DNA of 64,000 nucleotides from Patescibacteria group bacterium (lineage in GTDB: Bacteria > Patescibacteriota > Microgenomatia > UBA10105 > UBA927), in contig JAMCTH010000003.1 in NCBI GenBank assembly GCA_023379025.1, positions 17,114-81,113 on the forward strand. Direction: 5' to 3'. The notes beneath the pieces were generated by a model that saw only the letters and a list, made by a program, of their open reading frames with translations, was not told where the DNA came from and searched no databases. The translations under genes were made by a program, and so were the position numbers. Position 1 is the stretch's first letter, and each line of letters starts with the position of its first letter. Shown here in pieces: positions 8,138-64,000 of the stretch.

Positions 8138-8149
8138 AATAAATTCCCT

Positions 8150-36602: not shown

Positions 36603-36605
36603 ATG

Positions 36606-37223: not shown

Positions 37224-37235
37224 ACCTCAATGACG

Positions 37236-46257: not shown

Positions 46258-46283
46258 GTAGCGAACGTAAACGCTTCTCTCTC

Positions 46284-47039: not shown

Positions 47040-47071
47040 ACGTTTCTGTCACGCTCTGTGTGAACCGCGGT

Positions 47072-48679
47072 TCAGCCCGTACCGGTATAGTGCTCCAGTT
47101 TGAAAATTTTTACAAAGGGCGTAACCCACTCACCGACGATCTGTGCGCGCCCGAATCCGGCAATTTCCCACAGGGAGTTTCCGAGCGGATGACAGTCGGG
47201 AAATTCGCAGATGACGATAAGCTGATCCGTAACGCTTCTCCGGTCCGGATCGACGGATACCGGTTCGATCGTCACGGGCGGATGCCCCCAGATTTCAAAA
47301 AAATACCGGTAGGCGTAATCCGAATTGGATGAGGTGATAAGGGCGAAGTTAAACGGGAGCCCGTTTGCTTTAGAGAGGGCCGTTTGGGCAATACCGCGCA
47401 TCTGAGAAAGCTGATTATTCGGCGCGTACACAAACGGTCTCCCCTGCCAGTTCAGGACCACGAGACCGATAAACACGGCTGCCGCACCCATACGTCCCAC
47501 CACGTTTATACGTGCGATATCGGCAAGAACAAGCGCCGTCAGGAGAAACGGCAAAGGAAATACAATGCCGAAATAATAGTCATAAATATTTTTCCGGTAT
47601 AAACCGAAAAGCACTATGCTGACACCAAACCAGAGCGCCAATAGGAGCATGGCCTGCCGCCCTTCCGGCTCAAGAAGAAACGTCCTGATCTTCTTTATGA
47701 ATCCCCTCTCATTTGCCCGGGAGCGGACGACTGCCCAAACGGACGGCAGTAAAATGAGGGCAAGGGCCAGGATTGTTCCGAGAACCGTACCGCCCCGCCA
47801 GAGTATCTCCTGCCAGGGCGGGAGAGCCGCAAGCGAAGCTGCCTCGGGGATGCGGTAGACAAGCCTTCCGAAGATGCGGTAGCTGACATCCGCAACGGTA
47901 GCAAGGAACCGGCCGAAGGAAAATCCTACATCCTGTCCGGCAAGGATAAACCGGATGATCGACCTTGTATTGGGGAAGCCGTGCCGCAGTTCGAACGCAA
48001 GAAACGGGCTATAGCCCACCCCAAACCCTGCAATCCCGAAAAGGTAGTGGCGGAGCCTCCTCCCCGGCTTACCGAAGAATAAAAGCCAGAGGGCTGCAAA
48101 CGGAATGAGGAAGAGAAAAAGATAATGAAGCTGCAGACCGATCCCGATTATTACGCCGATCCAAAAAAGCATACCGGGCCGCTTTTCCTCGGTTGTTTTC
48201 CAGAGACACCAGACAAGGAGGAGTGAAAAAAACGGCACGAGATTCGGGTTCCACGAAGACCGCGAATAGGATATAACCAGCGGCGAAAGTGCGTAGAGGG
48301 CGGCAGCCATGAGCCCCACCACACGGTCAAAGAGCATGTTCCCGGTCCGGTAAAGAAGCCAGACCGTCGCGATGCCAAAAAGCGCCACCATTACGGCGGG
48401 GCCGGTCGGATCGAAGCGCCAGAGCCAGAGAAACGGCAGCATGAAATAGTAATAGATAGGTCCAAGGAAAAATCCTCCGACGGAAGCCGTGGGTCCGAGG
48501 AGGGTAAACTTGTGCTCGGTGATCATCCGCGCAACCACCAGGACATCCCGCCCCTCATCGCCGAGGAACGTAAGGTACGCCGATATCTTCCATAACCGAA
48601 GATACGCAGCGACCACGACGATGGCGGGGAGCGCAAACGTTTGCCAGTGCCGCCTCATCCACGAAAGCGTTTTATACAT
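47072..48679 (-). CDS. Family-C GT-C fold membrane glycosyltransferase
   Basis: 535 aa with FLGDEGRDVLVVARMI...LLGPTASVGGFFLGPIYYY. Confidence 0.6.
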   Translation of the reverse strand: MYKTLSWMRRHWQTFALPAIVVVAAYLRLWKISAYLTFLGDEGRDVLVVARMITEHKFTLLGPTASVGGFFLGPIYYYFMLPFLWLWRFDPTGPAVMVALFGIATVWLLYRTGNMLFDRVVGLMAAALYALSPLVISYSRSSWNPNLVPFFSLLLVWCLWKTTEEKRPGMLFWIGVIIGIGLQLHYLFLFLIPFAALWLLFFGKPGRRLRHYLFGIAGFGVGYSPFLAFELRHGFPNTRSIIRFILAGQDVGFSFGRFLATVADVSYRIFGRLVYRIPEAASLAALPPWQEILWRGGTVLGTILALALILLPSVWAVVRSRANERGFIKKIRTFLLEPEGRQAMLLLALWFGVSIVLFGLYRKNIYDYYFGIVFPLPFLLTALVLADIARINVVGRMGAAAVFIGLVVLNWQGRPFVYAPNNQLSQMRGIAQTALSKANGLPFNFALITSSNSDYAYRYFFEIWGHPPVTIEPVSVDPDRRSVTDQLIVICEFPDCHPLGNSLWEIAGFGRAQIVGEWVTPFVKIFKLEHYTGTG

Positions 48680-48685
48680 AACGGG

Positions 48686-49798
48686 CTAGTGCTTCTTCCA
48701 AATCACCCGCGAGTAGAGCGTGTAATTCCATATGAGCCCGAGTCCGACTCCCAACAGGTAAAACAGGCGGTAGGAGGAAATTCCGTACATGGCGGTACCT
48801 GCTGCAATGGTTCCGCCCTGTATAATCACCGCGCCTATTGATGCCGTATTGAACTGGATGAATTTCCCGATCATCCGCCTGCCGACGATTCTGCGCTCCG
48901 AAAACGTCCAGGCATTGTTGAGGATAAAATTGGAGATAATCGCAAGTTCCGCTCCGGTCATGCCTCCGATAACGGGGTGCAGCCCGATCCGGACAAACCC
49001 TTCAAGGACGACGGTGTTGATGATAAATCCGATCGTTCCGACCACGCAGAATCTGAAAAATGACGATCTGAAGGTGCTTTTCATGCGCTCCCGCAGGACA
49101 TAATGAAAAACGTCCCGGATATACTGGGACGGAGCGATTTTGGAATGTCCGAATCGCCGGTCCGTGAAATGTATGGGTACTTCAACAACCCGCGCCCCCA
49201 GCATGATCGACCGGTGAAGGAATGCGATCTGGAAAAGATACCCGCTGAACCGGACGAGATCGGATTTCAGACGGTCGTAGTACGTATGACGGTATGCCCG
49301 AAACCCGCCGGTCCAGTCATGCACGTAGGAATAGCCGAGTCCGAAACGCACGATGGTGTTGCCGATGATGCTGTAGATTTTCCGGTGTACTGCCCAGTTT
49401 TCCGGTATGGAACCTCCCGGGATATAGCGGCTTCCGACCACAAAATCAGCTCCGCGATCGATTGCCTCAAGAAACTCCGGCAATACCTTCGGATCATGCG
49501 AAAGGTCCGCATCCATCTGGATAAACAGTTCCGCGCCCATCGTTTCCCGCCCGTATGCCATGCCGCGAAGGAGCGCCCTGCCGAGTCCTTCCTTTTTTCC
49601 GAGGAGAAGGAAAACGTTTTTGTGTTTTTTCTGGTAGCTGCGGACGACATCGGCTGTCTTGTCCGGCGAGGTGTCATCGACGACCAGAATCGAAACCGCA
49701 TGACTGCGGACCGGCGTGAGCGCATCCAGAATGCCGTTGAGAAGCAATATGATATTATCACGTTCGTTGTACGTGGGGACGATGACCACTGCTTTCAT
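48686..49798 (-). CDS. GT2 polyprenyl-phosphate glycosyltransferase fused to a C-terminal GtrA-like 4-TM domain
   Basis: 370 aa. The N-terminal domain has VVIVPTYNERDN and VVDDTSPDKT GT-A motifs. The C-terminal 120 aa form four TM helices, FCVVGTIGFIINTVVL...WNYTLYSRVIW, typical of GtrA. Confidence 0.7.
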   Translation of the reverse strand: MKAVVIVPTYNERDNIILLLNGILDALTPVRSHAVSILVVDDTSPDKTADVVRSYQKKHKNVFLLLGKKEGLGRALLRGMAYGRETMGAELFIQMDADLSHDPKVLPEFLEAIDRGADFVVGSRYIPGGSIPENWAVHRKIYSIIGNTIVRFGLGYSYVHDWTGGFRAYRHTYYDRLKSDLVRFSGYLFQIAFLHRSIMLGARVVEVPIHFTDRRFGHSKIAPSQYIRDVFHYVLRERMKSTFRSSFFRFCVVGTIGFIINTVVLEGFVRIGLHPVIGGMTGAELAIISNFILNNAWTFSERRIVGRRMIGKFIQFNTASIGAVIIQGGTIAAGTAMYGISSYRLFYLLGVGLGLIWNYTLYSRVIWKKH

Positions 49799-49810
49799 AT
49801 CGATCGGAGC

Positions 49811-50770
49811 CTACACCCGTTCGCGCCAATAGTTGAGGAGGTCTTCCATGGTTTTTTCAAACGGAATTCCCGCTTTCCAGCCGGTCTTTTGGGTAAATTT
49901 AGTATTATCGCCGATTAAGACCGGAACATCGGATGGGCGCATCCGCATCGGATCTTCCTGTATCTTTACCTTCACTTTCGAATAGGACAGAAGGAGATTG
50001 AGCATGTCGCCGATCCTGATGGCGTTGCCGGTACAGATGTTATACACGTCTCCGCAGTCGCACTCCGTCACGGCGGCAACGTATGCTTTCACCATATCGC
50101 GGACATCCGTATAATCCCGTTTGGCTTCCAGGTTTCCGACACGGATGACCGGCTCCTGCTTCCCTTTTTCTATCATCGCAATCTGTTTGGCGAAGTTCGA
50201 CTCGGCAAACGTTTCTCCTCTTCTCGGCCCCGTATGGTTAAACCCGCGGGTCCTCACGATTTTTACTTTATAGGACTGAAAATACTGGTATCCCAGGTAA
50301 TCCATCGCAAGTTTTGAAACGGCATACGGCGAAAGCGGCCGGAGCGGATTCGTCTCCCTGATCGGCAGTTCATCGGACAGCACCAGCCCGTACTCCTCGG
50401 ACGAACAGGCAATCTGGATGACCGGATCGATGTTTGCCTGGCGCACGGCCTCGAATACGTTCGCCGCTCCGACGATGTTCACTTCAAGGGTCACGGACGG
50501 CGAAACCCAGGACGTCGGGACAAACGACTGGGCAGCCAGATGAAAAATATAGTTGGGTTTAATGCGCGAGAGGGTCGTATACAGACTGTGCGAATCCAGA
50601 AGGTCCGCGTCCTCAAGATGCAGTTTGTTAATGATTTTATCTATGTGGTCGAGCTTGCTTCTCGGCCGGCAGAGCCCGTGTACTTCATACCCCTGCGACA
50701 GGAGAAGCTCCGCAAGATGGCTTCCGACGAAACCCGCGATACCCGTGATGAGTGCCCGTTTTGTTTCCAT
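49811..50770 (-). CDS. gmd: GDP-mannose 4,6-dehydratase-like SDR (NAD-dependent epimerase/dehydratase)
   Basis: 319 aa. It has an ITGIAGFVGSHLAELLLSQGYEVHG Rossmann motif and an SPYAVSKL Y-xxx-K segment. FNHTGPRRGETF and LGNLEAKRDYTDV match segments I recall from Gmd. Confidence 0.6.
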   Translation of the reverse strand: METKRALITGIAGFVGSHLAELLLSQGYEVHGLCRPRSKLDHIDKIINKLHLEDADLLDSHSLYTTLSRIKPNYIFHLAAQSFVPTSWVSPSVTLEVNIVGAANVFEAVRQANIDPVIQIACSSEEYGLVLSDELPIRETNPLRPLSPYAVSKLAMDYLGYQYFQSYKVKIVRTRGFNHTGPRRGETFAESNFAKQIAMIEKGKQEPVIRVGNLEAKRDYTDVRDMVKAYVAAVTECDCGDVYNICTGNAIRIGDMLNLLLSYSKVKVKIQEDPMRMRPSDVPVLIGDNTKFTQKTGWKAGIPFEKTMEDLLNYWRERV

Positions 50771-50819
50771 GGTATTCTCCTCCTTTATAGACTATACCCA
50801 TTATACATAGTCCCGTATC

Positions 50820-52118
50820 CTACATTCTGCCGACACCGTAATACGTATACCCCATCTGCTTGACTGCGGCAGGTTCATAGATATTCCGTCCGTCAAACAA
50901 CACGCGGTTTTTGAGTCCTTTGGCAAGGCGGACAAGATCAAGCTGCCGGAATTCGTTCCATTCGGTAACGACGGCAACCGCATCCGCGCCGTCCACAGCC
51001 TCGTAGGCGCTTTTGGCATAGAGGACGCCGTGGGGCAGCACACGCTTCGCGTTGTCAACCGCGATCGGGTCATAAGCCGCAACCTCTGCACCCTTTTTAA
51101 CGAGTACCGTGATAATGCCAATGGACGGTGCTTCACGCATATCATCGGTATCCGGCTTGAATGAAAGGCCGAGTACCGCGATGCGTTTGCCTCTGAGCGT
51201 CCCGCCGAAATGCCGGAGGATTTTATCCGTAAAATGCACGGCGGCTTCCTTGTTTATCGCATCCACGGCTTTCAGAAGCTGAAAATCATATCCCTTGGCT
51301 CCGGCAATCGCGATAAGTGCCTTTACGTCCTTGGGGAAACAGCTGCCCCCGTATCCTACCCCCGGGTAGAGGAAACTTCTGCCGAGACGGCGGTCGAGCC
51401 CCACGCCTTCGAGAACCTTTTCCGCGTCCGCACCCACTTTTTCCGACAGGAAGGCTATGGCATTTGCAAATGATATTTTCGTCGAAAGCAGGGAGTTTGA
51501 TGCGTATTTAATGAGTTCGGCCGTTTCTACGTTGCAGGGAACGGTCTTGCCGTCAATCGGCTTATGGAGTTCCAGAAGAAGATCCCTCGCCCGGTCCGAA
51601 GTGGTCCCGATAACGACGCGGTCCGGGTGAAGCGTATCGGAAATCGCCGTCCCCTCACGCAGAAATTCCGGAACCGAAGCAATCGCAAATGACGCGCCCT
51701 CCCGTTTGACCGAAGTAATGAGATCGGAAACGACGCTGTTCGTTCCCGGCGGGACCGTACTTTTGGTCACGATAACTTTATAGCCGACAAGCGCTTTTCC
51801 TATCGCTGTTGCGGCGGCACGTACGTGGGAGAGATCCGCTTCCCCTGTTTCTTTGGGCGGAGTGCCGACACAGATAAAAATAATGTCCGAAGGGGATATT
51901 GCCTCACCGTATTCCAAAGTAAAGAGAAGCCTTCCGGCTTTGGTGTTCCTCCGCACGAGTTCCTCAAGCCCCGGCTCGTAAAAGGGCATGACTCCTGCCT
52001 TGAGCCGTTCGATTTTTTCTTTGGTATGCCCGACAACCCATACGGTATTCCCAAGGTCCGCAAATACCGCTGCGGTGACTAACCCGACATAACCGTGACC
52101 GATAAACGAAATAGTCAT
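50820..52118 (-). CDS. ugd: UDP-glucose 6-dehydrogenase / nucleotide-sugar dehydrogenase
   Basis: 432 aa. It has an N-terminal GHGYVG NAD-binding motif and GGSCFPKD, the catalytic-Cys motif of the UDP-glucose/GDP-mannose dehydrogenase family. Confidence 0.8.
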   Translation of the reverse strand: MTISFIGHGYVGLVTAAVFADLGNTVWVVGHTKEKIERLKAGVMPFYEPGLEELVRRNTKAGRLLFTLEYGEAISPSDIIFICVGTPPKETGEADLSHVRAAATAIGKALVGYKVIVTKSTVPPGTNSVVSDLITSVKREGASFAIASVPEFLREGTAISDTLHPDRVVIGTTSDRARDLLLELHKPIDGKTVPCNVETAELIKYASNSLLSTKISFANAIAFLSEKVGADAEKVLEGVGLDRRLGRSFLYPGVGYGGSCFPKDVKALIAIAGAKGYDFQLLKAVDAINKEAAVHFTDKILRHFGGTLRGKRIAVLGLSFKPDTDDMREAPSIGIITVLVKKGAEVAAYDPIAVDNAKRVLPHGVLYAKSAYEAVDGADAVAVVTEWNEFRQLDLVRLAKGLKNRVLFDGRNIYEPAAVKQMGYTYYGVGRM

Positions 52119-52999
52119 GTGGAATGAATACGTGTGTTCCCGACCGCTCCGAGCGTTTTCAGACCCTCTTCAAATGTCGACATCCGTATCCCGAATTTGG
52201 TTATTTTATCATGTTCCAAAACCGCATGAAAGGGCCGGGGGGCACGTCCGCGGAAATACCGGGCGAATGAGGTTTCTTTCACAAGCGACTCGTCATATCC
52301 GAATGTCCGGGCGATACACCGGGCCGCGCCGTACGGAGACAGGGCATCTTCGCCGACCACATGATACAGTCCATGTGCGTCATTTCTGACCAACGAATCG
52401 ATTGCGCGCGCAATGTCATCGATATACGTCGGCATGAATAGCTGGTCCGAAGGCGAACTGATCTCCTGCCCTTTTGCAAGCTTTTCCCGGATCTTGCCGA
52501 CGAAATCGGGTTTTTTCCCGAGATGCGGACCGTAGGGATTTGCAATACGGAGGATCAGCGCCCTATCTCCGAGAACGGCAACGGCACATTCCCCTTCATA
52601 TTTTGTCACGCCGTACCAGCCCAGGGGATGCGGAATATCCTCCTCCGTATATCGGGGGCGGCTCCCGTCAAAGACATAATCCGTCGAGATATAAAGGAGC
52701 CGCTTTCCCGTCTCCCGACAGATCCGCGCAATCTCCTGTGTTGCACCGGTATTGACGCGCCAGGTCGTACCGGATGTTCCTTCCTCCCGTTCCCGTTCAG
52801 CACGGTCTACATCGGTCTGTGCGGCAAAATGCCAGACCCAGCTTGCCGGAGAAGCGATCATTGCCCGGCGGAGGGACGGACCGTCCGTAATATCAACGCC
52901 AGTTTCGAGACTGAGGTTTGCGAACGCGTAGCGGTCTCCCAGGAGTTCTGTCACACGCGAACCGACCATGCCGCTTAACCCTGTGCCCAGTATCTTCAT
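52115..52999 (-). CDS. rmlD: dTDP-4-dehydrorhamnose reductase
   Basis: The RmlD-like core has MKILGTGLSGMVG and YGVTKYEGE. The start is trimmed to Met23 at 52999, which gives an ATGA overlap with the rmlB stop. Confidence 0.7.
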   Translation of the reverse strand: MKILGTGLSGMVGSRVTELLGDRYAFANLSLETGVDITDGPSLRRAMIASPASWVWHFAAQTDVDRAEREREEGTSGTTWRVNTGATQEIARICRETGKRLLYISTDYVFDGSRPRYTEEDIPHPLGWYGVTKYEGECAVAVLGDRALILRIANPYGPHLGKKPDFVGKIREKLAKGQEISSPSDQLFMPTYIDDIARAIDSLVRNDAHGLYHVVGEDALSPYGAARCIARTFGYDESLVKETSFARYFRGRAPRPFHAVLEHDKITKFGIRMSTFEEGLKTLGAVGNTRIHST

Positions 53000-54015
53000 G
53001 TCATTCGGTTCCCGTACTGTTTGTTGTAATACTCCCCATACGCACCGGACTTCATGCGGTGCCACCAGTCGGTATGTTCTTTATACCAGGAAATGGTTGC
53101 CGTAAGACCTGCCGCCAGATCCGTTTCCGGACGCCAGCCGGTATCCCTTTCGAGTTTGGACCAGTCTAAGGCATAGCGACGGTCATGGCCCGGACGGTCT
53201 TTGACAAACGTCATGGATGACTCATCTGTCTTCATAAGCTTCAGGATGGTTTTCACGATCATACTGTTGGGTACGTGATCATCCGGCCCGCCGATGCAAT
53301 ACGTCTCCCCGACGTTCCCTTTCGTCAGGACCGCTTCAATCGCCCGCACGTGATCGGTCACATAGAGCCAGTCCCTGACGTTTTTCCCGTCACCGTAGAC
53401 CGGTACGGGCTTTCCCTCAAGCACATTGGTGATTGCCAGAGGAATGAGTTTTTCGGGAAACTGAAAGGGCCCGTAATTGTTCGAACAGTTGGTGATCGTC
53501 ACCGGCAGTCCGAACGAATGAAAGTATGCGTTTACCAGATGGTCCGAAGCGGCTTTGGACGCCGAATACGGACTTCTCGGATCATACCTGGTCGTTTCCG
53601 AAAATTTGTCCGACCCAAGAAGACCGAGCGATCCGTACACCTCATCGGTCGATATATGGTGGAACCGCCGGATGCCGCGTTTTCTCGCGGCTTCCAGCAA
53701 TACGCTCGTGCCGACAATGTTTGTCCGGACGAACGGAGCAGGATCGAGGACTGAACGGTCCACATGCGTTTCCGCAGCAAAATGAACCACGGTATCAATA
53801 CCCTCCATGGCGGCATAAACCGCGCTGCTGTCGCAGATATCCGCCCTGACAAACCGATAATGGCTGTTTCCTTCAAGCGTCTTCAGGTTTTCCGCGTTGC
53901 CGGCATAGGTCAGACTATCCAGGTTCACAACGTCATCATCCGGATGATGACCGGCCCAGTAGAGAATAAAATTGGTACCGATAAAGCCGGCTCCGCCGGT
54001 AACAAGCAGTCTCAT
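52996..54015 (-). CDS. rmlB: dTDP-glucose 4,6-dehydratase
   Basis: It has LVTGGAGFIGTNF, HFAAETHVDRS and YSASKAASDH motifs. The start is trimmed to Met25 at 54015. Confidence 0.85.
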   Translation of the reverse strand: MRLLVTGGAGFIGTNFILYWAGHHPDDDVVNLDSLTYAGNAENLKTLEGNSHYRFVRADICDSSAVYAAMEGIDTVVHFAAETHVDRSVLDPAPFVRTNIVGTSVLLEAARKRGIRRFHHISTDEVYGSLGLLGSDKFSETTRYDPRSPYSASKAASDHLVNAYFHSFGLPVTITNCSNNYGPFQFPEKLIPLAITNVLEGKPVPVYGDGKNVRDWLYVTDHVRAIEAVLTKGNVGETYCIGGPDDHVPNSMIVKTILKLMKTDESSMTFVKDRPGHDRRYALDWSKLERDTGWRPETDLAAGLTATISWYKEHTDWWHRMKSGAYGEYYNKQYGNRMT

Positions 54016-54044
54016 ATACCGCACACTGAATGTTTTTGTACCGT

Positions 54045-54518
54045 CTACGTTATATTTGCATTGGTTATCGGCATTCCCTGCACCCAATCATAGCCGATCT
54101 CCGTATCCTTATATGCGATTCTTCCTTCCTCCCGGGTGTCATAGGTTCCGCTCGTGACATACACCAGTTCTGCCGGACCCTTCAGAACCTTCAGGCCGTG
54201 GGCAACGCCGTGCGGAATTTTCAGTATGATATCTCGTCCTTCTTCGCCCAACAGGTACTCTTCCGTCGTTTTGTGCGTCGGTGATCCGGATCGTCTGTCA
54301 TGGAGGACTGCTTTGATCGTGCCTTTGACCACATACCACCAGTCAATCTGGGTCTTGTGGATATGCCACGCTTTGACAACACCGGTCACCATGGATGAAC
54401 GCGAAAGCTGTCCGAACCCTTCGGAAAAAAACGGATCCGTCACCCGTATGAGTTCTTCAAAAAATCCCCGCTCGTCCGGATGACGGACCAGTTCCTTTAT
54501 GGCAACGCCGTCTATCAT
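54045..54518 (-). CDS. rmlC: dTDP-4-dehydrorhamnose 3,5-epimerase
   Basis: 157-aa cupin protein with HPDERGFFEE, the RmlC signature, and WHIHK. Confidence 0.8.
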   Translation of the reverse strand: MIDGVAIKELVRHPDERGFFEELIRVTDPFFSEGFGQLSRSSMVTGVVKAWHIHKTQIDWWYVVKGTIKAVLHDRRSGSPTHKTTEEYLLGEEGRDIILKIPHGVAHGLKVLKGPAELVYVTSGTYDTREEGRIAYKDTEIGYDWVQGMPITNANIT

Positions 54519-55252
54519 AGTTTTCCGTCTTGTACCATCCGGGCCACCTGATTGTTGGCTTCGAGAAGTTCGTCAAAGGACGTACCGGCATCCACCCACC
54601 AGTCGATGATTTCGCAGGTAAGTTCTCCGGTAGACAGGTAAAAATTATTAAGGTCCGTTACTTCAAGTTCTCCCCTCCCGGAAGGCGATAGTTTTTTTAT
54701 GAACGAAAAAACCCGCTCGTCATAGATATAGATGCCGGTCTGGGCGATATCGGATTTGGGATGTTCCGGCTTTTCCTCGATAGAGCGCACCGTACCGCTG
54801 CCGTCCACTTCTATCACCCCGTACTGACGCGACCCGGTGTCCTTGTGGACGCCGAACACCATGGCTCCCCGGCCTTTCTGTTCAAATTTCCGTACTGAAG
54901 GCGCAAGGTCATGGTGGAAAATATTGTCTCCGAGAAGGACAAGAACCGGCTCATGATGGGCAAACTCCTCCGCAAGGGCTATCGCATCGGCTATTCCTCC
55001 TTTGGGATTCTGCTGTATGGCGTAGTAAAGCCGGAGACCGAACGCTTCTCCCGCTTTCAGCAGGTTGGCAAAATGCCCCGCATGATCTCCCGACGTCGTG
55101 AGAAGCACCTCCCTGATCCCTGCTTTTTTCATGGCCATCAGGGGGTAATAGATCATCGGCTGGTGATAGATAGGAAGGAGGTGTTTGTTGGTTACGAGCG
55201 TAAGCGGCCGCAGCCTCGTCGCAAGACCTCCCGCAAGGATAACGCCTTTCAT
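54515..55252 (-). CDS. rmlA: Glucose-1-phosphate thymidylyltransferase (short form)
   Basis: It has GVILAGGLATRLRPLT and LLGDNIF NTP-transferase motifs. The start is trimmed to Met19 at 55252. It overlaps rmlC by ATGA. Confidence 0.7.
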   Translation of the reverse strand: MKGVILAGGLATRLRPLTLVTNKHLLPIYHQPMIYYPLMAMKKAGIREVLLTTSGDHAGHFANLLKAGEAFGLRLYYAIQQNPKGGIADAIALAEEFAHHEPVLVLLGDNIFHHDLAPSVRKFEQKGRGAMVFGVHKDTGSRQYGVIEVDGSGTVRSIEEKPEHPKSDIAQTGIYIYDERVFSFIKKLSPSGRGELEVTDLNNFYLSTGELTCEIIDWWVDAGTSFDELLEANNQVARMVQDGKL

Positions 55253-55256
55253 AGTA

Positions 55257-55511
55257 TTAGATGCGCAGCACGGTCGACAGGAGGACAATGGCAAGCGCAC
55301 TGACAAGCATATATTCTATCACAACCTTCCGGTGGAGGTCGCCCCGTGCCGCATGATGGATGATTCCCCACAGAAAATAGGCAACCGACGTAACCGCTCC
55401 CACCAAAAACTGCGCCGTCGGATTTCCGCGCAGGACCCAAAAAAGCCCTAACCCGCCGCCCAATATGATGACCAGTATGGCAAAATGTAGAATTTTTTCC
55501 GGTGCTTTCAT
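55257..55511 (-). CDS. Small membrane protein (84 aa, 3 TM helices), unknown function
   Basis: Trimmed to Met39 at 55511, giving an ATGA overlap with the CAP-domain gene's stop. It is hydrophobic throughout. Confidence 0.4.
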   Translation of the reverse strand: MKAPEKILHFAILVIILGGGLGLFWVLRGNPTAQFLVGAVTSVAYFLWGIIHHAARGDLHRKVVIEYMLVSALAIVLLSTVLRI

Positions 55512-56464: not shown

Positions 56465-56505
56465 TCTTCTATGATAGACACACCGCGGGGAAAATAAAAG
56501 AGCGT

Positions 56506-56838
56506 TCAGGAGGAATACCGGTCATGTTCGTAATGGAGCGGAATGTCTTCGCCCGCAGGTTTTCCGTTGACCGGAACATCCAGGAGAAACCCAAGCATTT
56601 TCCCGACCGTCATACCGACGCGCAAGCCGGTAAATGATCCCGGACCGGTATTAACCCTAATCTCCGTCAGTTTTTTAAGCTCCAAATGGTTTTCTTTAAG
56701 GACCTTCTCAATCATCGGCAACACCATTTGTGCTTTCGCGCCCTGTTTAACTATTTTTGCTATTTTATTTCCTCCGATTCCAACACTAACGTTTATTTTT
56801 TCCGAATCGGAAGTATCAATAAAAAGAATATTAGACAT
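56506..56838 (-). CDS. tsaB: TsaB/YeaZ-like t6A biosynthesis protein, short form (N-terminal domain only)
   Basis: 110 aa. It has ILFIDTS and the TsaB/YeaZ signature TGPGSFTGLRVGMTVGKMLG. It stops after about half of a normal TsaB. Confidence 0.55.
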   Translation of the reverse strand: MSNILFIDTSDSEKINVSVGIGGNKIAKIVKQGAKAQMVLPMIEKVLKENHLELKKLTEIRVNTGPGSFTGLRVGMTVGKMLGFLLDVPVNGKPAGEDIPLHYEHDRYSS

Positions 56839-57061
56839 ATAAAAAATCTAGGTAATATTTTCTGCTATCCACCGATCAATCGGGATAGTTTGATCGTATA
56901 TAATAACGTCTTCACCAGTTCCAGGTTCTTCAAAATCTAACTAAAAGATATTGAGTGGGTTTAGTCATAGCCTAATTATATACCGCTGACGAGTATATTT
57001 GCGCTACCCACCCCCTGCCTAGTTGCTCTTTTGGGTTGGAGTAGCTATCATATAATCAGTT

Positions 57062-58030
57062 ATGCCTGAAGCAATCCTTGAAGAACCGGCAAGAACAAAG
57101 GAACTAACGCCTTTAGCGCTTGCTCGAGGATGGTTAAATTTTAGGGCGGCAGAAGTAAGAAAAGAACTAAGGTCAGCAGAAGGATCGAGACAATTCGTCA
57201 GCACCTACAAATCAGAGCCAGTAATCCGTCCTTCAAATGTTGAAGTTGGCAGTATGGATGATTCTGATTGGACTGTTGCGGAGTTAGAGCATGAGCAGTG
57301 GCCAGAAGAACAAGAAGCCCAATTAGAACAACTCGATGAGAGATTGGATGAATTATATGATCAGCAATCTACTATCGCGGATCACAGAAAACGTATTAAC
57401 AAAGGAGATACTGATCTCATAAATCAATTTGCCCAGCTAGAAAAGGACAGGCTCAAAAAACTCGAGGATGCGCGGAAGCTCGAAGAGGCCCTCAAACAAG
57501 GATTTGTGTTTGAAGGAGTAGAAGAGGTAGTGACAAACTTAGATCACATTACAAACGTGGTCGGAAATGATCAAGTTGGCGCTGACTCAGCATTAGCAAA
57601 TGGCTGGAGACTCGTACAACACTACCCGCGTGAAGTCCTTCGCTACAGCAGCACAGGAGAACCCTACGGAGAAAATCCTGAACAATTTCAATTGTACTAC
57701 ACGCCTGATCCAGAGGCCGGAGACAGAAATGTATTCATGAGAATGTACGTCAGAGATACTGAATATGAACTCGTCATAGAAGATTTTCGGGATAGGCAAA
57801 ATGCGGATAGTATCTACGGAAAAGCAACGAAAGCTACAAAGGGTACTTGCCTATCGCTTTCGATTGAAAATGGGAGAATATTCAGACCGTGGACTGGAAC
57901 AGTAATAGAAGATGCTAGGTGGGGATACCCGGAAACTCATCATGTTGAAGGAAGTTATAACTTTACCCAAGAACACTTCGATCAAGTTAAAACGCTCATC
58001 GCCTCTCTTGCTGCTGGCATAGATACATAA
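57062..58030 (+). CDS. Hypothetical protein, acidic coiled-coil N-terminus, on the AT-rich island
   Basis: 322 aa. It is the only convincing plus-strand ORF in the island. Its composition is low-GC like its surroundings. I recognised no motif. Confidence 0.5.
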   Translation: MPEAILEEPARTKELTPLALARGWLNFRAAEVRKELRSAEGSRQFVSTYKSEPVIRPSNVEVGSMDDSDWTVAELEHEQWPEEQEAQLEQLDERLDELYDQQSTIADHRKRINKGDTDLINQFAQLEKDRLKKLEDARKLEEALKQGFVFEGVEEVVTNLDHITNVVGNDQVGADSALANGWRLVQHYPREVLRYSSTGEPYGENPEQFQLYYTPDPEAGDRNVFMRMYVRDTEYELVIEDFRDRQNADSIYGKATKATKGTCLSLSIENGRIFRPWTGTVIEDARWGYPETHHVEGSYNFTQEHFDQVKTLIASLAAGIDT

Positions 58031-58057
58031 GTAAAACCTCAAGCTAGCTGATGCTTC

Positions 58058-58560
58058 TTATAACATTCTATGTCCACCGCCGACATAAATTTTTTGTCCA
58101 GTGAGCCAGCGGGCTTGGTCGGAAGCTAGAAATAATATGACATCAGCTACATCTTCCGGTGGCCCAATCTGACGAAGCGGAATACTTGGTATCATTTCTT
58201 TTTCCATGGTAGAAGAAATCCAGCCGGTTTGAACCGGACCTAACGAAACGATGTTTGCGGTAACCCCATAGGGCCTAACTCCAAAGCAGCAGAGACCGTA
58301 TTGGTGATGTAAAAACCGTCAATAGCAATTGTTTTTTTTATCTGACGTTTGGGGAAGAAACGTATCAGCCAGACAATATGCCGCATTGTTGACAATAATC
58401 TCCACCGGTCCGAATGTTTTCTCAACACGATCAAAAAGTTCAGGGATCACTTTTGGATTAGACAAATCTGCCTCCCACGCTTCAACTTTAACGCTCTGTT
58501 TGGGCATTGATTCAATAACTTCTCCGGCATCTTTGCCTGCTGGATACGGTAATACGACTC
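58058..58560 (-). pseudogene. Decayed short-chain dehydrogenase/reductase (FabG-like) gene fragment
   Basis: The minus-strand translation gives VEIIVNNAAY (ORF 58319..58507). In another frame the C-terminus reads ASDQARWLTGQKIYVGGGH (58068-58124). The N-terminal Rossmann segment is missing. Confidence 0.55.
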
Positions 58561-58662
58561 ACCCGGTGTAGCGTCTGTCTCAGCAGACTGGTTTGGAAGC
58601 CGTAAATAGGTGATTAAAACTGCTGAAGTCTAGACTAGGTCGATTCTCGATAAAATCTCACT

Positions 58663-58890
58663 TTACAACTGATTAACCACGTAGTAATCAATCAGTCTCC
58701 TGATCATAGCCTGATATGAAGCACCGTGCTTTCGAGCTTTGTCTTTAAAAAATTTCAGGCTTTTTTCGGTGAGCGTAAGCGTCACTTTAGATCTCTTTTC
58801 TTTCAGAACTAAGTCCTCCTGCTTGGGTAAAAAATCACTGATCACCTTCGCCCCAACCGGTTCGCCGGTGTATTTGATTTTCCTTTTCAT
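58663..58890 (-). CDS. brnA: BrnA-type antitoxin (ribbon-helix-helix)
   Basis: The C-terminus KFFKDKARKHGASYQAMIRRLIDYYV resembles BrnA antitoxins. It is trimmed to Met12, but still overlaps brnT by 56 nt. The Met1 start at 58923 is the alternative. Confidence 0.55.
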   Translation of the reverse strand: MKRKIKYTGEPVGAKVISDFLPKQEDLVLKEKRSKVTLTLTEKSLKFFKDKARKHGASYQAMIRRLIDYYVVNQL

Positions 58891-59149
58891 ATATTTTTTT
58901 GCCTTTTCTCCAATACCCCGCACCTATAACCCGAATGCGTTTAGCTCTATAGGTAAATCGGACAGTGAAGACACCTCCTTTCACTTTTCCGAAACAATAA
59001 TACCGTTCTTCCTCCTTGCCATGAAGTAAATCTTTAGCAATTACGCGATTTTTATCAAGAAAAGCAAATTGGGCTATTTTAAAATCAATACCATGCTTCT
59101 TCCTGTTTTCCTTATTTTTATCTTCATCCCACTCAAAAGACGTTTTCAT
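58835..59149 (-). CDS. brnT: BrnT-type toxin (RelE/ParE superfamily ribonuclease)
   Basis: 104 aa with FEWDEDKNKENRKKHGIDF and RIRVIGAGYWRKGKK segments like BrnT toxins. It sits directly upstream of brnA. Confidence 0.6.
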   Translation of the reverse strand: MKTSFEWDEDKNKENRKKHGIDFKIAQFAFLDKNRVIAKDLLHGKEEERYYCFGKVKGGVFTVRFTYRAKRIRVIGAGYWRKGKKIYEKENQIHRRTGWGEGDQ

Positions 59150-59188
59150 AAATATAGTACCATCTAGCCATATTTTTTACCATATTCT
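59150..59188 (-). promoter_or_regulatory. Putative brnTA promoter/operator in the 39-nt gap after tsaC
   Basis: The minus-strand sequence reads AGAATATGGTAAAAAATATGGCTAGATGGTACTATATTT-ATG. It has an extended -10-like TGGTACTAT 4 nt before the ATG, which would make the mRNA leaderless. It has a direct repeat AATATGG x2. Confidence 0.25.
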
Positions 59189-59847: not shown

Positions 59848-60309
59848 TCAGCGTTTTTTTTCTGTAATAATTTGATGCGTACCGTTGTCGAAAACCGAAA
59901 AACGGACATCCGTCCGCTCACCGGGTAATACACATCCCAGCTTTTCCGCCCACTCGACAATCACAATATGCTGAGGGTCAGAAAATATTTCCGTAATGCC
60001 AAGGCTGTCCAGTGCTTCGGCCGACGGCAAACGATAGAGATCCAGGTGATAGAGGAAGGAACCGAAATTGTTCAGCAAACGGTAACGTCGTACAATAATA
60101 AAGGTGGGAGAGGGGAGGCGGCAGGAAATGCCAAGTCCCCTTGCGAACCCCCGGACGAATGTTGTTTTCCCGCTGCCCAGTGCCCCGTACAGGCAATATA
60201 CGCGGGCTACTCCCGCTCTCCCCTTCTCCCCGGCCAGTTTTTGCCCTATTTCAGAGCCAAAATCAGCGGTTTCTGCTGCCGAACGGGTAATCCGCACGGT
60301 TGGCGTCAT
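59848..60309 (-). CDS. tsaE: tRNA threonylcarbamoyladenosine biosynthesis ATPase TsaE (YjeE)
   Basis: It has LYGALGSGKTTFVRGFARGLG as P-loop and an SPTFIIV segment. It is trimmed from the 314-aa ORF to Met162. The upstream 160 codons are an R/P-rich low-complexity readthrough of high-GC DNA. Confidence 0.75.
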   Translation of the reverse strand: MTPTVRITRSAAETADFGSEIGQKLAGEKGRAGVARVYCLYGALGSGKTTFVRGFARGLGISCRLPSPTFIIVRRYRLLNNFGSFLYHLDLYRLPSAEALDSLGITEIFSDPQHIVIVEWAEKLGCVLPGERTDVRFSVFDNGTHQIITEKKR

Positions 60310-60316
60310 AGCGGCA

Positions 60317-61159
60317 TTATACACCCTGCCGCACATTCCGAAGCGTAAATCCCAGGCACGCACACCCGAGGCCGGCGCCGATGAGAAGGATCGAAATGAT
60401 ATACGCGGACGGCGGTTCGGATCCGAGGAGCAGGGAACCGGAAGTAGCCTGACCCGCCGGCGTTCCCGCACGGAAGCTCTCGGAAAATGTGTCACTGCTC
60501 CTGAAGATACCGGCGACACTTCCTGTTTTATCAAGGGTCCTGCCTGAAGCTGCCGGGGACTGCGGTATCTCTGTCGGAGGGGGCGTTTCGACAGGTGTTG
60601 CCGTCGGCGCCGGGGATATCTGCGGAGCGGGAGTCGCGGTCGGTACCGGGGGAGGGGCAGGTGTTGCCGTCGGGGTAGGACTCGGCGTCGGGGTAGGCCC
60701 GGTAATCCGGACGGTCTGCTCCGGAGACCAGCTGACGCTGCAGCTGCCCGTGTATCTGCCGATTTTGAATAAATACTCCCCCGGCCCTTCATAGAGCGGG
60801 CTTTCTTTGTCCGGTTTCACCGTCACTGCCCCGCTCCATGTCCCTTCCGGACTGAGCATATCGGATAAAACGGGAATATACTGCGTGCAGTTTCCGCCCG
60901 GCGCGTTTACCCAGGATCCGTCCGGATGCTTCGTATACCCGAAGTATTTCGTTCCCCCGATGTAGAATACCCCGCGCAGATACGACGTACTGGTGCAGCC
61001 CGCACACACGAGTGTTACCCGGACATCAAACTCTCCGTTTTCATCCGTTTCGAGAGGTACGGAATCAATCGCAACCCCTGCCGCACGGATCGATAGCGGA
61101 GCCGCAAGAGAAACTGCCGCAAGCAGAATACCGCACAATACCCCGGGGAGCGCATTCAC
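60317..61159 (-). CDS. Cell-surface protein with a signal peptide, small Cys-containing domain, Pro/Thr-rich linker and C-terminal TM anchor
   Basis: 280 aa. The N-terminus LCGILLAAVSLAAPLSIRAAG is signal-like. The linker is TGPTPTPSPTPTATPAPPPVPTATPAPQISPAPTATPVETPPPTEIPQSP. The C-terminus YIISILLIGAGLGCACLGF is hydrophobic. Confidence 0.6.
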   Translation of the reverse strand: MNALPGVLCGILLAAVSLAAPLSIRAAGVAIDSVPLETDENGEFDVRVTLVCAGCTSTSYLRGVFYIGGTKYFGYTKHPDGSWVNAPGGNCTQYIPVLSDMLSPEGTWSGAVTVKPDKESPLYEGPGEYLFKIGRYTGSCSVSWSPEQTVRITGPTPTPSPTPTATPAPPPVPTATPAPQISPAPTATPVETPPPTEIPQSPAASGRTLDKTGSVAGIFRSSDTFSESFRAGTPAGQATSGSLLLGSEPPSAYIISILLIGAGLGCACLGFTLRNVRQGV

Positions 61160-61243: not shown

Positions 61244-62437
61244 TCAGATGCTCACCTGATCCACTTCAAAGACGCTTCCGAGGGAGTAGCTGTCAGTGAA
61301 TACCTTGTCATAGCCGTTTTCCTGGTACGGGTCATCCATGATGTAACGGCCGTCGGTATAGGATTTGATGACGACAAAATGCGTGCCGAACGGGCCGTAC
61401 CGGATGCCGGCGATAACCGGCTGATCCTTCACAGTATCGGGGGAAAGTGATGTCCCGATGCGCGTGATTGTGACTCCTTTGACCGAAATCGTGTACCTGA
61501 GCATAGCGGTTCCGACCGAAAAATTATTGGGATCGGAAACGGCGATATCCGACGGTAGTATGTCGGTATGTCCCATATGGCTTGCGACCATGGCAACCGA
61601 CGTAATGAGGCACCCGACACGGGCAAGGCTGCAGGGGCCGTTGCAGTCATTCCTGCCGTTTATGAGCGTATTGGCCCACTGCCCGTCCCGCTGGTTGTAG
61701 TAGCATCCCCATCCGTCGCAATGCGTCTGGGCACCAAGTATTCCTCCCCCCTGGCTTGCCGCAAAGCTCGCAAAACTCGCCAGTTGCGCCCTGGCCTGAG
61801 CCAGAAGCGACTGATAGGTCGCTTCGTCGTTTTTGGTCTGGGTGAGCAGCGATTGTTTTTCCTTCTTCTGGCGGTCGAGCTGCGTTGTTTCAGCCACCAA
61901 TTCTTCATTGAGCGCAACCTGCTGGCTCTTTTTTTCTTCCCGGAGGTCTTTCATGGCAGTATAGTCGTTCTGTGTCAGCTGGAACTGCTCATAGAGCTTG
62001 GTATCTTCCGCCTGCACGGACGACAGGTACTTCACGCCCAGCATAAACCGCGTAAAATCCGGAGACAGGAGGAGAAGTCCGAAATCCGGAGCAACCATGC
62101 GTTTATACGTTTCCGGAACGCGATGCAGAACGAGCTTAAGCCGTTCCGTCTTCAGGTTCTCGAGGGTGTCGATCTGCGTGGAGAGATCGCTGATCTCGCC
62201 GGTCAGTTTGGCGATCTGGTTTCTCGTTGCCGTGATTTTCAGCGTGGTCAGAGTGATGCGCGAATCCAGAAGTTGTATTTCACTCGAAAGCGTCTCTGCC
62301 TGCCCCTGCAGATCGCTTATTTTCTGCTGATACTGTTCTATCTGGCGATTGAGATCGTCGACGTTCTGGGCCCTGATGACGGAGCGAACGAAGAGCGAAC
62401 AAACCACCAGAAGTACTGCTGCAACCGCCCGTTTCAT
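61244..62437 (-). CDS. Secreted coiled-coil protein with a C-terminal C39-like/papain-like cysteine peptidase domain (PcsB/EnvC-like FtsEX partner)
   Basis: 397 aa. It has a signal peptide and about 200 aa of heptad-rich, Q/L/E/K-rich sequence. The C-terminal domain has a candidate catalytic Cys in GCLITSVAMVASHMG and a His in GTHFVVIKSY. It is immediately downstream of ftsX. Confidence 0.55.
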   Translation of the reverse strand: MKRAVAAVLLVVCSLFVRSVIRAQNVDDLNRQIEQYQQKISDLQGQAETLSSEIQLLDSRITLTTLKITATRNQIAKLTGEISDLSTQIDTLENLKTERLKLVLHRVPETYKRMVAPDFGLLLLSPDFTRFMLGVKYLSSVQAEDTKLYEQFQLTQNDYTAMKDLREEKKSQQVALNEELVAETTQLDRQKKEKQSLLTQTKNDEATYQSLLAQARAQLASFASFAASQGGGILGAQTHCDGWGCYYNQRDGQWANTLINGRNDCNGPCSLARVGCLITSVAMVASHMGHTDILPSDIAVSDPNNFSVGTAMLRYTISVKGVTITRIGTSLSPDTVKDQPVIAGIRYGPFGTHFVVIKSYTDGRYIMDDPYQENGYDKVFTDSYSLGSVFEVDQVSI

Positions 62438-62446
62438 GCTCGTGAT

Positions 62447-63343
62447 TTAGAATTTGAGGTATCTGCCTACGGCGACGAGACTTCCGATACTCCCGAGAAG
62501 AAATCCGGCGGCAAGAAGCATGCCGAAAAATGCTGCCGTCGGAAGGAGGAACAGCGCGGATGCCGGATCTGAAAGCACCGCGTGAATAACCGGAACGATA
62601 CCCAGAAAAGAAAGGAGAAGCGGCCGGATCCACAACACCGCTCCCGTCAGGATCGCACCGGACACAACTGCGCTGATGACACCGTAGAATCCTCCCTCAA
62701 GGATAAACGGCGCCCGGATATACCAGGGTGATGCGCCGACCAATGTGAGGATTTCCACCTCGCGCTTTCTGACGGCAATTTTCATACCGATGACCGCCGT
62801 AACAATCAGTATCGAATCGAGTGAGAGAAGCCCCGCGAGCGTACCGCCGGCAAGACGGATAGCCCGCGTCCAGGTCAGGAGCGTATCCACGACATCTTTC
62901 TGATAGACGATCTGCTCAACCCCGCTTGCTCCTTTTATGATGGGATAGAGATCATTGAGGTACGCGGGATCGGTCGCCGATATTTCAAGCGATGCCGGCA
63001 GGATATCGGCCGTGACCATTTCAAGAAGCAGCGGGTCATTTCTGTTCTGCTGGCGATACAGCGCCAGGGCGTCATTCTGGGAGATATACTTGACCCCCGC
63101 GGTTTTACCGGTATGCTCGAGCGTTGCCTTAAGAGAAAGAATATCCGATTCTTTGACGCCGTCCGAAAAAAACACGGTGATCTGGGGCTTACTCTCGAAA
63201 TACCTGAGGATATAAAACGATCCAGCGGAGGTGATAAAAAATACCCCGGCAAGAAGGAGCGTCAGGAACATGCTAATGATCGCGGCAAGCGCCTGGTACG
63301 GCGACCGCCGGATATGCGTCCACGTGGTCGGCAACAGTTTCAT
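62447..63343 (-). CDS. ftsX: Cell division permease-like protein FtsX
   Basis: 298 aa. It has one N-terminal TM helix, an extracytoplasmic domain of about 100 aa, then three TM helices, and it follows ftsE. Confidence 0.8.
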   Translation of the reverse strand: MKLLPTTWTHIRRSPYQALAAIISMFLTLLLAGVFFITSAGSFYILRYFESKPQITVFFSDGVKESDILSLKATLEHTGKTAGVKYISQNDALALYRQQNRNDPLLLEMVTADILPASLEISATDPAYLNDLYPIIKGASGVEQIVYQKDVVDTLLTWTRAIRLAGGTLAGLLSLDSILIVTAVIGMKIAVRKREVEILTLVGASPWYIRAPFILEGGFYGVISAVVSGAILTGAVLWIRPLLLSFLGIVPVIHAVLSDPASALFLLPTAAFFGMLLAAGFLLGSIGSLVAVGRYLKF

Positions 63344-63346
63344 AGG

Positions 63347-64000
63347 CTACCCCTTCGGGTCTTCTTTTTTATGGGACTGGGTTTCATGATGCGCCTCTGT
63401 TTTTTTATGTACATGATATTTCCCTTTGGCCTCATCACTTATGAGATGCCCTTCCCGAAGGGCTATGGTCCGTTTTTTCATATCATTGACGATCCCCGCG
63501 TTATGCGTAGCCATGATGACCGTCGTACCCAGCGTATTGATCTGTTGAAGGATGGTAAGAATTTCCCATGAGGTATCGGGGTCGAGATTTCCGGTCGGCT
63601 CATCCGCAAGCAAAATCGACGGGCCGCCCACGATGGCCCGCGCGATGCTCGTCCGCTGGAGTTCCCCTGCGGAAAGCTGCTGCGGAAAAAACTGACGCTT
63701 GGAGGAAAGACCGACCAGAGACAGCACTGCGTCAGCGTCCCGGATAATCTCACTGTCCTTTTTTCCCAAAATCTCAAGCCCGACCGCCACATTTTCGTAT
63801 ACCGTCCGGTCAAAAAGCAGCTTAAAATCCTGGAACACCGTCCCTATTTTGCGCCTGAGAAGAAATACGCGGGATGTCGGCATGGCGTTGACTTTCATAT
63901 CGTCGACATACACCTCTCCCGACGTCGGGAGAATGTCGTGGATGAGAAGACGGAGAAACGTGGTCTTCCCTGCTCCCGACGGTCCGATGAGAAACACGAA
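63347..64000 (-). CDS. ftsE: Cell division ABC ATPase FtsE (N-terminus lies beyond the window end)
   Basis: It has Walker A GPSGAGKTT, an ABC signature LSAGELQR and Walker B ILLADEPTGNLD. The sequence runs to position 64000 with no start codon in the window. Confidence 0.85.
   Translation of the reverse strand, partial: FVFLIGPSGAGKTTFLRLLIHDILPTSGEVYVDDMKVNAMPTSRVFLLRRKIGTVFQDFKLLFDRTVYENVAVGLEILGKKDSEIIRDADAVLSLVGLSSKRQFFPQQLSAGELQRTSIARAIVGGPSILLADEPTGNLDPDTSWEILTILQQINTLGTTVIMATHNAGIVNDMKKRTIALREGHLISDEAKGKYHVHKKTEAHHETQSHKKEDPKG

Follow-up and report, generated by a model that had tools for sequence, protein, structure and literature searches.

In bacterial division and elongation, cleavage of the cell wall under the control of FtsEX is conserved and often essential. 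To our knowledge, the effector heads of FtsEX known so far are of three types: degenerate LytM, CHAP, and NlpC/P60. The FtsEX partners EnvC, PcsB, CwlO, and RipC have been reviewed (PMC6403190). Here, a stretch of 64,000 nucleotides (nt) from the genome of an ultrasmall, Gottesmanbacteria-like Microgenomates bacterium of the Patescibacteria group (assembly GCA_023379025.1, contig JAMCTH010000003.1, positions 17,114 to 81,113 of the forward strand) was analyzed, and this whole stretch is designated as the window. At its end, ftsE and ftsX are followed by a gene for a 397-amino-acid (aa) protein with a signal-peptide-like N-terminus, a long coiled coil, and a C-terminal C39-like cysteine peptidase domain (the head). 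This gene and its protein are designated as C39cc. The three genes, all on the minus strand, had been recognized in this order by an earlier reading of the letters alone (the sequence-only reading), and the analysis confirmed them. C39cc is probably an FtsEX-coupled and catalytically active wall peptidase.

The two partner genes are identified by their domain matches (Table 1). The translation of ftsE includes intact Walker A (GPSGAGKTT), signature (LSAGE), and Walker B (ILLADEPTGNLD) motifs, and its score of 233.8 for TIGR02673 is under the trusted cut-off of 264.85 solely because the gene is truncated by the window end. The ftsX product matches the Pfam model of the FtsX extracellular domain (FtsX_ECD) over all 96 model positions (E-value 2.4e-14, 54.1 bits with a threshold of 23.5), as well as the Pfam FtsX permease domain (3e-7, 31 bits with a threshold of 25.5). 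The NCBIfam models FtsX_Gneg (4.3e-46) and FtsX_Gpos (1.2e-45) give 156–157 bits, under their equivalog cut-offs of 225–255, as expected if the sequence is a divergent one from the candidate phyla radiation (CPR). An FtsE ATPase and an FtsX protein with both ECD and permease domains are thus encoded by adjacent, co-oriented genes. The spacing is 3 nt between ftsE and ftsX and 9 nt between ftsX and C39cc. A scan for terminator and promoter consensus sequences between 59 and 64 kilobases (kb) of the window gave counts not above those of shuffled sequence, and it is therefore uninformative on operon boundaries. Given the gaps of 3 and 9 nt and no terminator signal above the shuffled background, ftsE, ftsX, and C39cc are likely to be co-transcribed.

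In total, 626 homologs of C39cc were detectable (best E-value 5e-168), and a chance ORF can therefore be dismissed. The named members are from Gottesman-, Levy-, Roizman-, Woese-, and Shapirobacteria and other Microgenomates. The taxonomic breadth was judged from named records only, and many titles of metagenome-assembled genomes (MAGs) are mislabelled (e.g., "uncultured Gammaproteobacteria"); on this basis, the family appears to be essentially Microgenomates-specific. The members are labelled in their source records as "C39 family peptidase", "coiled-coil", or, from JGI, "peptidoglycan hydrolase CwlO-like protein", and thus the gene family itself is not unseen. The closest match, 65% identical, is from a Gottesmanbacteria MAG, the neighborhood of which mirrors the window with a prfB-like release factor gene, ftsE, ftsX, C39cc, and further on tsaE, tsaC, CAP, and rml genes.

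A scan of one genome per species revealed 376 genomes that encode a C39cc relative. Gene order was compared at the best 80 of these 376 loci and two others, 75 of which have enough upstream sequence; close relatives are possibly over-represented in this sample. The ftsX gene is directly upstream on the same strand at 70 of the 75 loci, and ftsE was found at 69, with protein identity down to 38%. The sequence-only reading had proposed this comparison as a check, and the three-gene arrangement is indeed conserved among relatives. At three further loci, one gene is located between ftsX and C39cc: a coiled-coil gene with an M23 domain (L064), a PMT-like glycosyltransferase gene (L065:3347-4888), and a PIN-domain toxin gene (L074:4573-4950).

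The head alone matches just 192 clusters at an E-value of 1e-3 or less in a library of 1.84 billion representatives. Nearly all of them are 390–450 aa long with the head at the C-terminus, and therefore this head subfamily is essentially confined to the architecture of a coiled coil followed by a C-terminal head. Two giant proteins among the matches, P0124 (4582 aa, 39 matched stretches) and P0221 (2138 aa, 14 matched stretches), were rejected as alternative architectures and regarded as spurious beta-strand matches; P0124 is an Ig/cadherin repeat protein, and P0221 looks like the same kind of match.

C39cc starts with MKR, a 14-residue hydrophobic stretch, and IRA/QN, and hydropathy peaks at 3.1 over aa 4–17. 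The full-length AlphaFold2 model, for which 90 homologs were used as input (predicted local distance difference test, pLDDT, 78.8), includes a helix at aa 2–16 and a disordered stretch at aa 20–25. These features fit a putative Sec signal peptide or an uncleaved anchor. The possibility of a lipoprotein was rejected, because the N-terminal LVVC is poor as a lipobox and Cys13 varies among homologs.

The N-terminus is followed in the model by an antiparallel hairpin composed of helices at aa 26–44, 50–114, 128–203, and 205–220 with the turn at aa 115–127. A low-confidence flexible linker (aa 219–230) leads to the globular domain (aa 231–397). The search against PDB with Foldseek recovered EnvC of the Vibrio cholerae FtsE/FtsX/EnvC complex as the top match (8tzl_E, E-value 9e-4) and EnvC bound to the FtsX periplasmic domain as the second (6tpi_A, 2e-3). 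RipA-N, Cg1735, PcsB (4cgk), and RipC from the Mycobacterium tuberculosis FtsEX/RipC complex were also recovered. The hydrophobic N-terminus, the modeled hairpin, and these fold matches fit the signal peptide and long coiled coil that had been claimed for the gene downstream of ftsEX. As modeled, C39cc would share with the PcsB/CwlO/RipC/EnvC class the status of an exported protein with a long antiparallel hairpin N-terminal to an effector domain.

Coiled coils can match through composition alone, and therefore stronger evidence was sought from the Pfam model CC_PcsB (PF24568) and from the alignment of paralogs. A sequence search of PDB with full-length C39cc returned only coiled-coil noise (phage gp26, BST2, and EnvC with an E-value of 3.4). 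CC_PcsB was matched over its gathering score at around aa 86–158 in the three close homologs examined, and it matches 43 of 90 family members with the best E-value of 2e-10. This segment covers the hairpin tip, where Tyr111 is invariant, and Ser125, Tyr137, and Gln142 are near-invariant. The coiled coil of the family is thus homologous to that of PcsB as represented in Pfam.

Two loci encode C39cc next to a paralog in which a coiled coil is combined with an M23 head. The order in L064, from a Woesebacteria MAG, is ftsE, ftsX, the M23 paralog gene (3561-4652), and C39cc. The order in L080 is ftsE, ftsX, C39cc, the M23 paralog gene (6258-7397), a gene similar to the 280-aa gene downstream of C39cc in the window (7438-8223), and tsaE. 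The M23 paralog of L064 matches both Pfam CC_PcsB (8e-7) and Peptidase_M23 (1.8e-12). The coiled coils of C39cc and the M23 paralog are 72% identical within L064 (206 aa) and 64% identical within L080 (249 aa), whereas the identity between L064 and L080 is 33–37% for any pairing of heads. The coiled coil from the window can be aligned with that of the L064 M23 protein gap-free, at 48% identity over 186 aa (composition-corrected E-value 1e-49), with the non-heptad tip included. Judging from these alignments, the coiled coil is a homologous module present in proteins with either an M23 head (EnvC-like) or a C39 head whose genes adjoin ftsX. As the identity is higher within a genome than between genomes, the coiled coil goes with its genome, and by implication with the cognate FtsX, and not with the catalytic head. 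Such a pattern points to a coiled-coil module matched to FtsX, with catalytic heads that can be exchanged, and would be expected if the coiled coil is the part that docks on FtsX. The homogenization of the paralogous coiled coils could be caused either by repeated duplication, by gene conversion, or by selection for binding to the same FtsX.

The M23 head of the L064 and L080 paralogs looks circularly permuted, with GPHLHFE (HxH) ahead of GTHTGIDI (HxxxD) and a C-terminal end of SLYWHIP. A search with the M23 head of the L080 paralog returned mostly short generic M23 proteins, and fewer than 20 database clusters cover the whole query; this search is uninformative on the spread of M23-headed coiled-coil partners in CPR.

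The head of C39cc had been proposed to resemble a C39-type peptidase rather than LytM or CHAP, and the search with profile hidden Markov models agreed. Peptidase_C39_2 (PF13529) is the sole peptidase family matched by the full-length window protein at the Pfam level, and the isolated domain exceeds its gathering score of 24 with 26.4 bits (E-value 1.1e-5). Domain aa 19–74 are aligned with model positions 5–40. Among 22 domain sequences sampled across the family, Peptidase_C39_2 was matched by all 22 (E-value of 1 or less, best 2.8e-9), Peptidase_C39 by 21, and Peptidase_C70 by 5. Peptidase_C39_2 was also matched by 80 of the 90 full-length homologs at an E-value of 1e-3 or less. No Pfam match to CHAP, NLPC_P60, or M23 was found in either the 22 domain sequences or the 90 full-length homologs. 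By these profile matches, the head is a member of Peptidase_C39_2 at the domain level.

The structure of the head was also predicted separately with high confidence (pLDDT 94.8, predicted template modeling score 0.91). The best structural match is the pseudomurein endoisopeptidase PeiR (8z4h, score 12.0), followed by the C39 domain of ComA (5xe8, 10.9), PCAT1 (8vp3, 10.3), a CdiA-CT toxin (8ssm, 10.2), and a C39-like peptidase from Bacillus anthracis (3erv, 10.2). The NlpC/P60 enzymes MepS (7v6s, 7.0) and CwlO (8wt3, 6.2) have lower scores. The best viral fold matches are a segment of a tail tape-measure protein (5.7e-6), a cyanophage "lysozyme" (4.5e-4), and a phage "peptidase".

Residue conservation was analyzed in an alignment of 96 sequences, including the query and 95 representatives of 50%-identity clusters from the 1.84-billion-protein library, and among 121 close homologs. 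The motifs quoted in the sequence-only reading are present, GCLITSVAMV at aa 275–284 and GTHFVVIKSY at aa 351–360, and they include the predicted nucleophile Cys276 and the predicted general base His353. Loss of this Cys/His dyad in homologs had been named as an observation that would speak against a peptidase. Instead, the dyad is conserved together with Gln249, the predicted oxyanion-hole residue, and Asp369, the predicted third residue of the triad (94 or 95 of the 96 sequences; Table 1). Gly275-Cys276 is kept in 95 and Asp369-Pro370 in 94 of the 96. The two exceptions at His353 are gap columns, not substitutions, and the three exceptional sequences in the alignment look truncated or misaligned at the catalytic columns. 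Asp369 is 16 residues past His353, which we take to be the spacing in ComA, a protein outside the present alignment.

The residues invariant among the 121 close homologs are Cys240, Cys245, Gln249, Cys276, His353, and Asp369. The Cys240/Cys245 pair is limited to a subgroup (36 of 96). A family-specific insertion of approximately 20 residues between Gln249 and Cys276 carries a variable Cys265/Cys269 pair.

The modeled papain-like fold with its conserved set of Gln, Cys, His, and Asp/Asn corresponds to that of C39-like peptidases. The conservation of Gln249, Cys276, His353, and Asp369 predicts that the head should be a catalytically active cysteine peptidase of the C39-like branch. An assignment to the bacteriocin-processing C39 peptidases (PCAT/ComA type) was rejected, because C39cc is extracytoplasmic and has no fused ABC exporter, and because its score of 14.4–15 bits for PF03412 is under the 22-bit threshold; the domain is C-terminal, after the signal peptide and coiled coil.

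The following mechanism can be proposed by analogy with EnvC, PcsB, CwlO, and RipC. C39cc would be exported via its N-terminal signal or anchor, and the hairpin tip, around Tyr111 to Tyr137, would dock on the extracellular domain of FtsX. ATP binding and hydrolysis by FtsE would be relayed via FtsX and the coiled coil, and would switch the head near the membrane from an inhibited to an active state, so that the head is licensed only where the wall is being synthesized or the cell is dividing. The papain-fold head would then use Gln249, Cys276, His353, and Asp369 to cut a stem or cross-link peptide or isopeptide bond of the wall, as suggested by the relatives of the head. The adjacency to ftsX at 70 of the 75 loci and the homogenized coiled coils of the tandem paralogs are indirect support for the coupling to FtsX. 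The action on peptidoglycan is suggested by the similarity in fold to PeiR, a wall endoisopeptidase, and by the M23 paralogs. PeiR includes a Pfam C39 catalytic domain and lyses methanogens with pseudomurein walls (PMC6189367), and the N5 domain of mycobacteriophage LysA matches the C39-like peptidase from B. anthracis (PMC3314691). The interpretation of C39cc as a lineage-specific variant of the FtsEX-controlled wall hydrolase, offered in the sequence-only reading, is supported by these lines of evidence, with the substrate and the binding to FtsX as its conditional parts.

A further proposal is tentative: FtsEX of Microgenomates might drive a fourth class of effector head, C39-like, which possibly cuts a different bond, with the coiled coil serving as a cartridge for swapped heads. 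The nearest solved relative of the head is a wall endoisopeptidase of an archaeal virus, and therefore the C39-like head may cut a peptidoglycan bond different from those cut by the NlpC/P60, CHAP, and M23 heads. A cross-bridge or an epsilon-Lys isopeptide link may be such a bond.

Several observations weigh against the interpretation of C39cc as an FtsEX-coupled wall peptidase. The C39cc protein from the window does not match CC_PcsB at an E-value of 1 or less, and at full length it scores 23.5 bits for Peptidase_C39_2, just below the gathering score. The sequence profile of the head has no meaningful match to a solved structure in PDB; the relationship is therefore remote, and homology to solved structures is visible only at the fold level. 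Two loci, L042 (4872-6110) and L052 (4884-6110), encode C39cc with no ftsEX within 5 kb.

In these two loci, the genes upstream of C39cc are for a sulfatase-like protein or an FTR1 iron permease, and the CC_PcsB and C39_2 signatures are retained.

Among the alternatives, the best surviving one, which is still unlikely, is that C39cc is coupled to FtsEX and its head cleaves a protein or peptide instead of peptidoglycan. Candidate substrates would be proteins that act at the surface or in division, a propeptide, or the anchored Pro/Thr-rich product of the gene immediately downstream. Leader peptides of the double-glycine type are the substrates of classical C39 domains, and several of the structures closest to the head in fold are proteases or toxins, not wall hydrolases. 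A survey of papain-like enzymes in 2023 describes C39_2 as single-domain and transporter-associated with no wall role stated (PMC10318531). A secreted and C-terminally anchored protein is encoded downstream at 47 or more of the 75 loci; however, this gene is absent or different at about a third of the loci. Moreover, the best structural match of the head is a cell-wall endoisopeptidase, and the interchangeable paralog of L064 and L080 has a head from M23, a peptidoglycan endopeptidase family. All characterized coiled-coil partners of FtsEX act on or regulate peptidoglycan hydrolysis (PMC6403190).

It is somewhat less probable that C39cc lies next to ftsEX through conserved gene order with no functional coupling, and that it is secreted as an autolysin acting independently or as a lysin antagonistic to hosts or neighbors. 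The wider neighborhood, from prfB through ftsEX to tsaE-tsaC, is conserved too, and therefore synteny by itself could result from a low rate of rearrangement. As L042 and L052 illustrate, C39cc can also reside elsewhere, and CPR bacteria are often episymbionts. However, the coiled coil of C39cc resembles known FtsX-binding hairpins, and the coiled coils of the tandem paralogs are homogenized within a genome while their heads differ. The operon-like gaps of 3–9 nt and the persistence of the adjacency across divergence down to 38% identity also argue for coupling.

The idea that C39cc is a non-catalytic adaptor like EnvC, with an inactive head that binds and activates another hydrolase such as an amidase, has precedent in EnvC and other LytM factors. 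EnvC chains match the full-length model best in structure, and the coiled coil has a weak NCBIfam EnvC match (E-value 2.2e-6). This idea is very improbable, as that match reaches 26.9 bits against a cut-off of 270, degenerate domains typically lose their catalytic residues, and Gln249, Cys276, His353, and Asp369 are kept in 94 or 95 of the 96 sequences of the alignment and without exception in the 121 close homologs.

The gene directly downstream of C39cc in the window encodes a 280-aa protein (Table 1), for which no Pfam match was found. It was detectable with tblastn in 24 loci. At 47 or more of the 75 loci, C39cc is directly followed by a gene whose product is organized in the same way, and "CGIL" often occurs in the last helix of this product. 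The 280-aa protein may belong to the ftsEX cluster as its fourth member, or may act as a substrate or partner.

Further features were observed in the window. The listed TsaE open reading frame (ORF; 59848..60792, minus strand) is over-extended; its Arg/Pro-rich first 155 aa or so overlap the 280-aa gene in another frame, the Pfam TsaE match begins at aa 170, and the true start of tsaE is probably near 60330. Compared with L001, the closest genome, the window has an insertion at 56465..59188. This insertion contains a gene for a BrnT ribonuclease toxin (58835..59149, Pfam 2.7e-21), which overlaps with an ORF for a BrnA-like antitoxin (58663..58923), an orphan ORF for an acidic 322-aa protein on the plus strand (57062..58030) with no Pfam match, and fragments of a short-chain-dehydrogenase-like gene (58319..58507). 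Paralogous membrane glycosyltransferases of the GT-C type (PMT_2, YfhO, and PTPS_related; at least nine confirmed) form a very large array at approximately 1..48700 and at 48686..55306. The array adjoins rmlA/B/D-like, UDP-glucose dehydrogenase, and GT2-GtrA genes, and together they constitute an envelope glycosylation island.

Table 1. Features of the ftsE-ftsX-C39cc region, with positions in the window and the basis of each assignment.
Feature	Position	Strand	Basis
ftsE, ABC ATPase; 5' end beyond the window end	63347..>64000	-	NCBIfam FtsE TIGR02673, E-value 1.7e-69; Pfam ABC_tran, 4e-26
ftsX, permease-like subunit, 298 aa; ECD at aa 54-145	62447..63343	-	Pfam and NCBIfam
C39cc, 397 aa, coiled coil and C39-like peptidase	61244..62437 (stop codon included)	-	ORF; 626 homologs, best E-value 5e-168
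Signal-peptide-like N-terminus, aa 1-23 (MKR, hydrophobic core, IRA/Q)	62369..62437	-	hydropathy, AlphaFold2
Antiparallel coiled-coil hairpin, aa 26-220	61778..62362	-	AlphaFold2 secondary structure, Foldseek, alignment to M23 paralog
Hairpin-tip region, aa 86-158, putative FtsX-ECD docking site	61964..62182	-	CC_PcsB match position in homologs, conservation
C39-like papain-fold peptidase domain, aa 231-397	61247..61747	-	
Gln249 codon, predicted oxyanion-hole residue (YYNQRD)	61691..61693	-	conserved in 95/96 aligned
Cys276 codon, predicted nucleophile (GC-LITS)	61610..61612	-	gca on the plus strand, i.e., TGC; 121/121 close homologs, 95/96 aligned
His353 codon, predicted general base (GTH-FVV)	61379..61381	-	invariant in 121 close homologs; 94/96 aligned
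Asp369 codon, predicted third triad residue (DDP)	61331..61333	-	invariant in 121 close homologs; 94/96 aligned
Downstream 280-aa gene	60317..61159	-	signal peptide, Cys-containing domain of ~130 aa, Pro/Thr-rich linker, C-terminal membrane helix with basic tail

The literature search found no description of a C39-headed FtsEX partner or of FtsEX effectors in Microgenomates. The 2023 classification of papain-like enzymes, in which C39_2 represents single-domain and transporter-associated peptidases, does not mention FtsX (PMC10318531), and C39 does not appear in a catalogue of the domains of bacterial wall hydrolases from 2019 (PMC6403190). What is new here is the C39-like type of head in the role of an FtsEX effector; the mechanism class is expected. 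As far as we know, division in uncultured cells of CPR/Microgenomates is almost unstudied. If the proposed function is true, it offers a first handle on wall splitting in these cells, adds C39-like domains to the repertoire of bacterial peptidoglycan hydrolases, and extends the rule of a conserved coiled coil that serves for coupling to FtsX and carries an interchangeable catalytic head. The tandem C39/M23 paralogs with homogenized coiled coils represent a natural experiment on FtsX-partner specificity.

Among the known systems, C39cc should be an analog of PcsB, CwlO, and RipC, which are enzymes themselves, and not of EnvC, a degenerate activator, because its catalytic residues are conserved. 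Of the "PcsB/EnvC analog" in the sequence-only reading, the PcsB side thus stands, whereas the EnvC side does not. PcsB from Streptococcus pneumoniae (coiled coil and CHAP, PDB 4cgk) shares with C39cc a signal peptide, a long antiparallel coiled coil, a linker, and a C-terminal cysteine peptidase of the papain clan. The CC_PcsB model falls on the hairpin tip in the 43 matching members of the C39cc family, and Foldseek recovers 4cgk. In contrast to PcsB, the head of C39cc is C39-like instead of CHAP, and the C39cc gene is integrated into the ftsEX operon. The PcsB model NF046104 gives 15.8 bits for C39cc against a cut-off of 450, with no CHAP match.

CwlO from Bacillus subtilis and RipC from Mycobacterium and Corynebacterium (coiled coil and NlpC/P60; PDB 8wt3 and 8idc) follow the same architectural logic as C39cc, and presumably the same activation by FtsEX. 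Foldseek recovers RipC of the FtsEX/RipC complex, but C39cc has no Pfam match to NLPC_P60. EnvC from Escherichia coli and V. cholerae (coiled coil and degenerate LytM; PDB 6tpi, 8tzl, and 8hd0) is the best structural match of the C39cc hairpin, and M23-headed paralogs with a nearly identical coiled coil adjoin C39cc in two Microgenomates genomes. In contrast to EnvC, C39cc has no LytM/M23 domain, and the catalytic residues of its head are conserved; the EnvC model NF008644 matches the coiled coil only.

The C39 and C39-like peptidases (PF03412 and PF13529; ComA, PCAT1, 3erv, and PeiR, 8z4h) share with C39cc the order of Gln, Cys, His, and, after 16 residues, Asp. Unlike the C39 peptidases, C39cc is not fused to an ABC exporter, is predicted to be extracytoplasmic instead of cytoplasmic, and has the insertion of approximately 20 residues between Gln and Cys and, in the closer subgroup, the N-terminal Cys240/Cys245 pair. 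PeiR has PMBR wall-binding repeats (PMC6189367), whereas C39cc has none.

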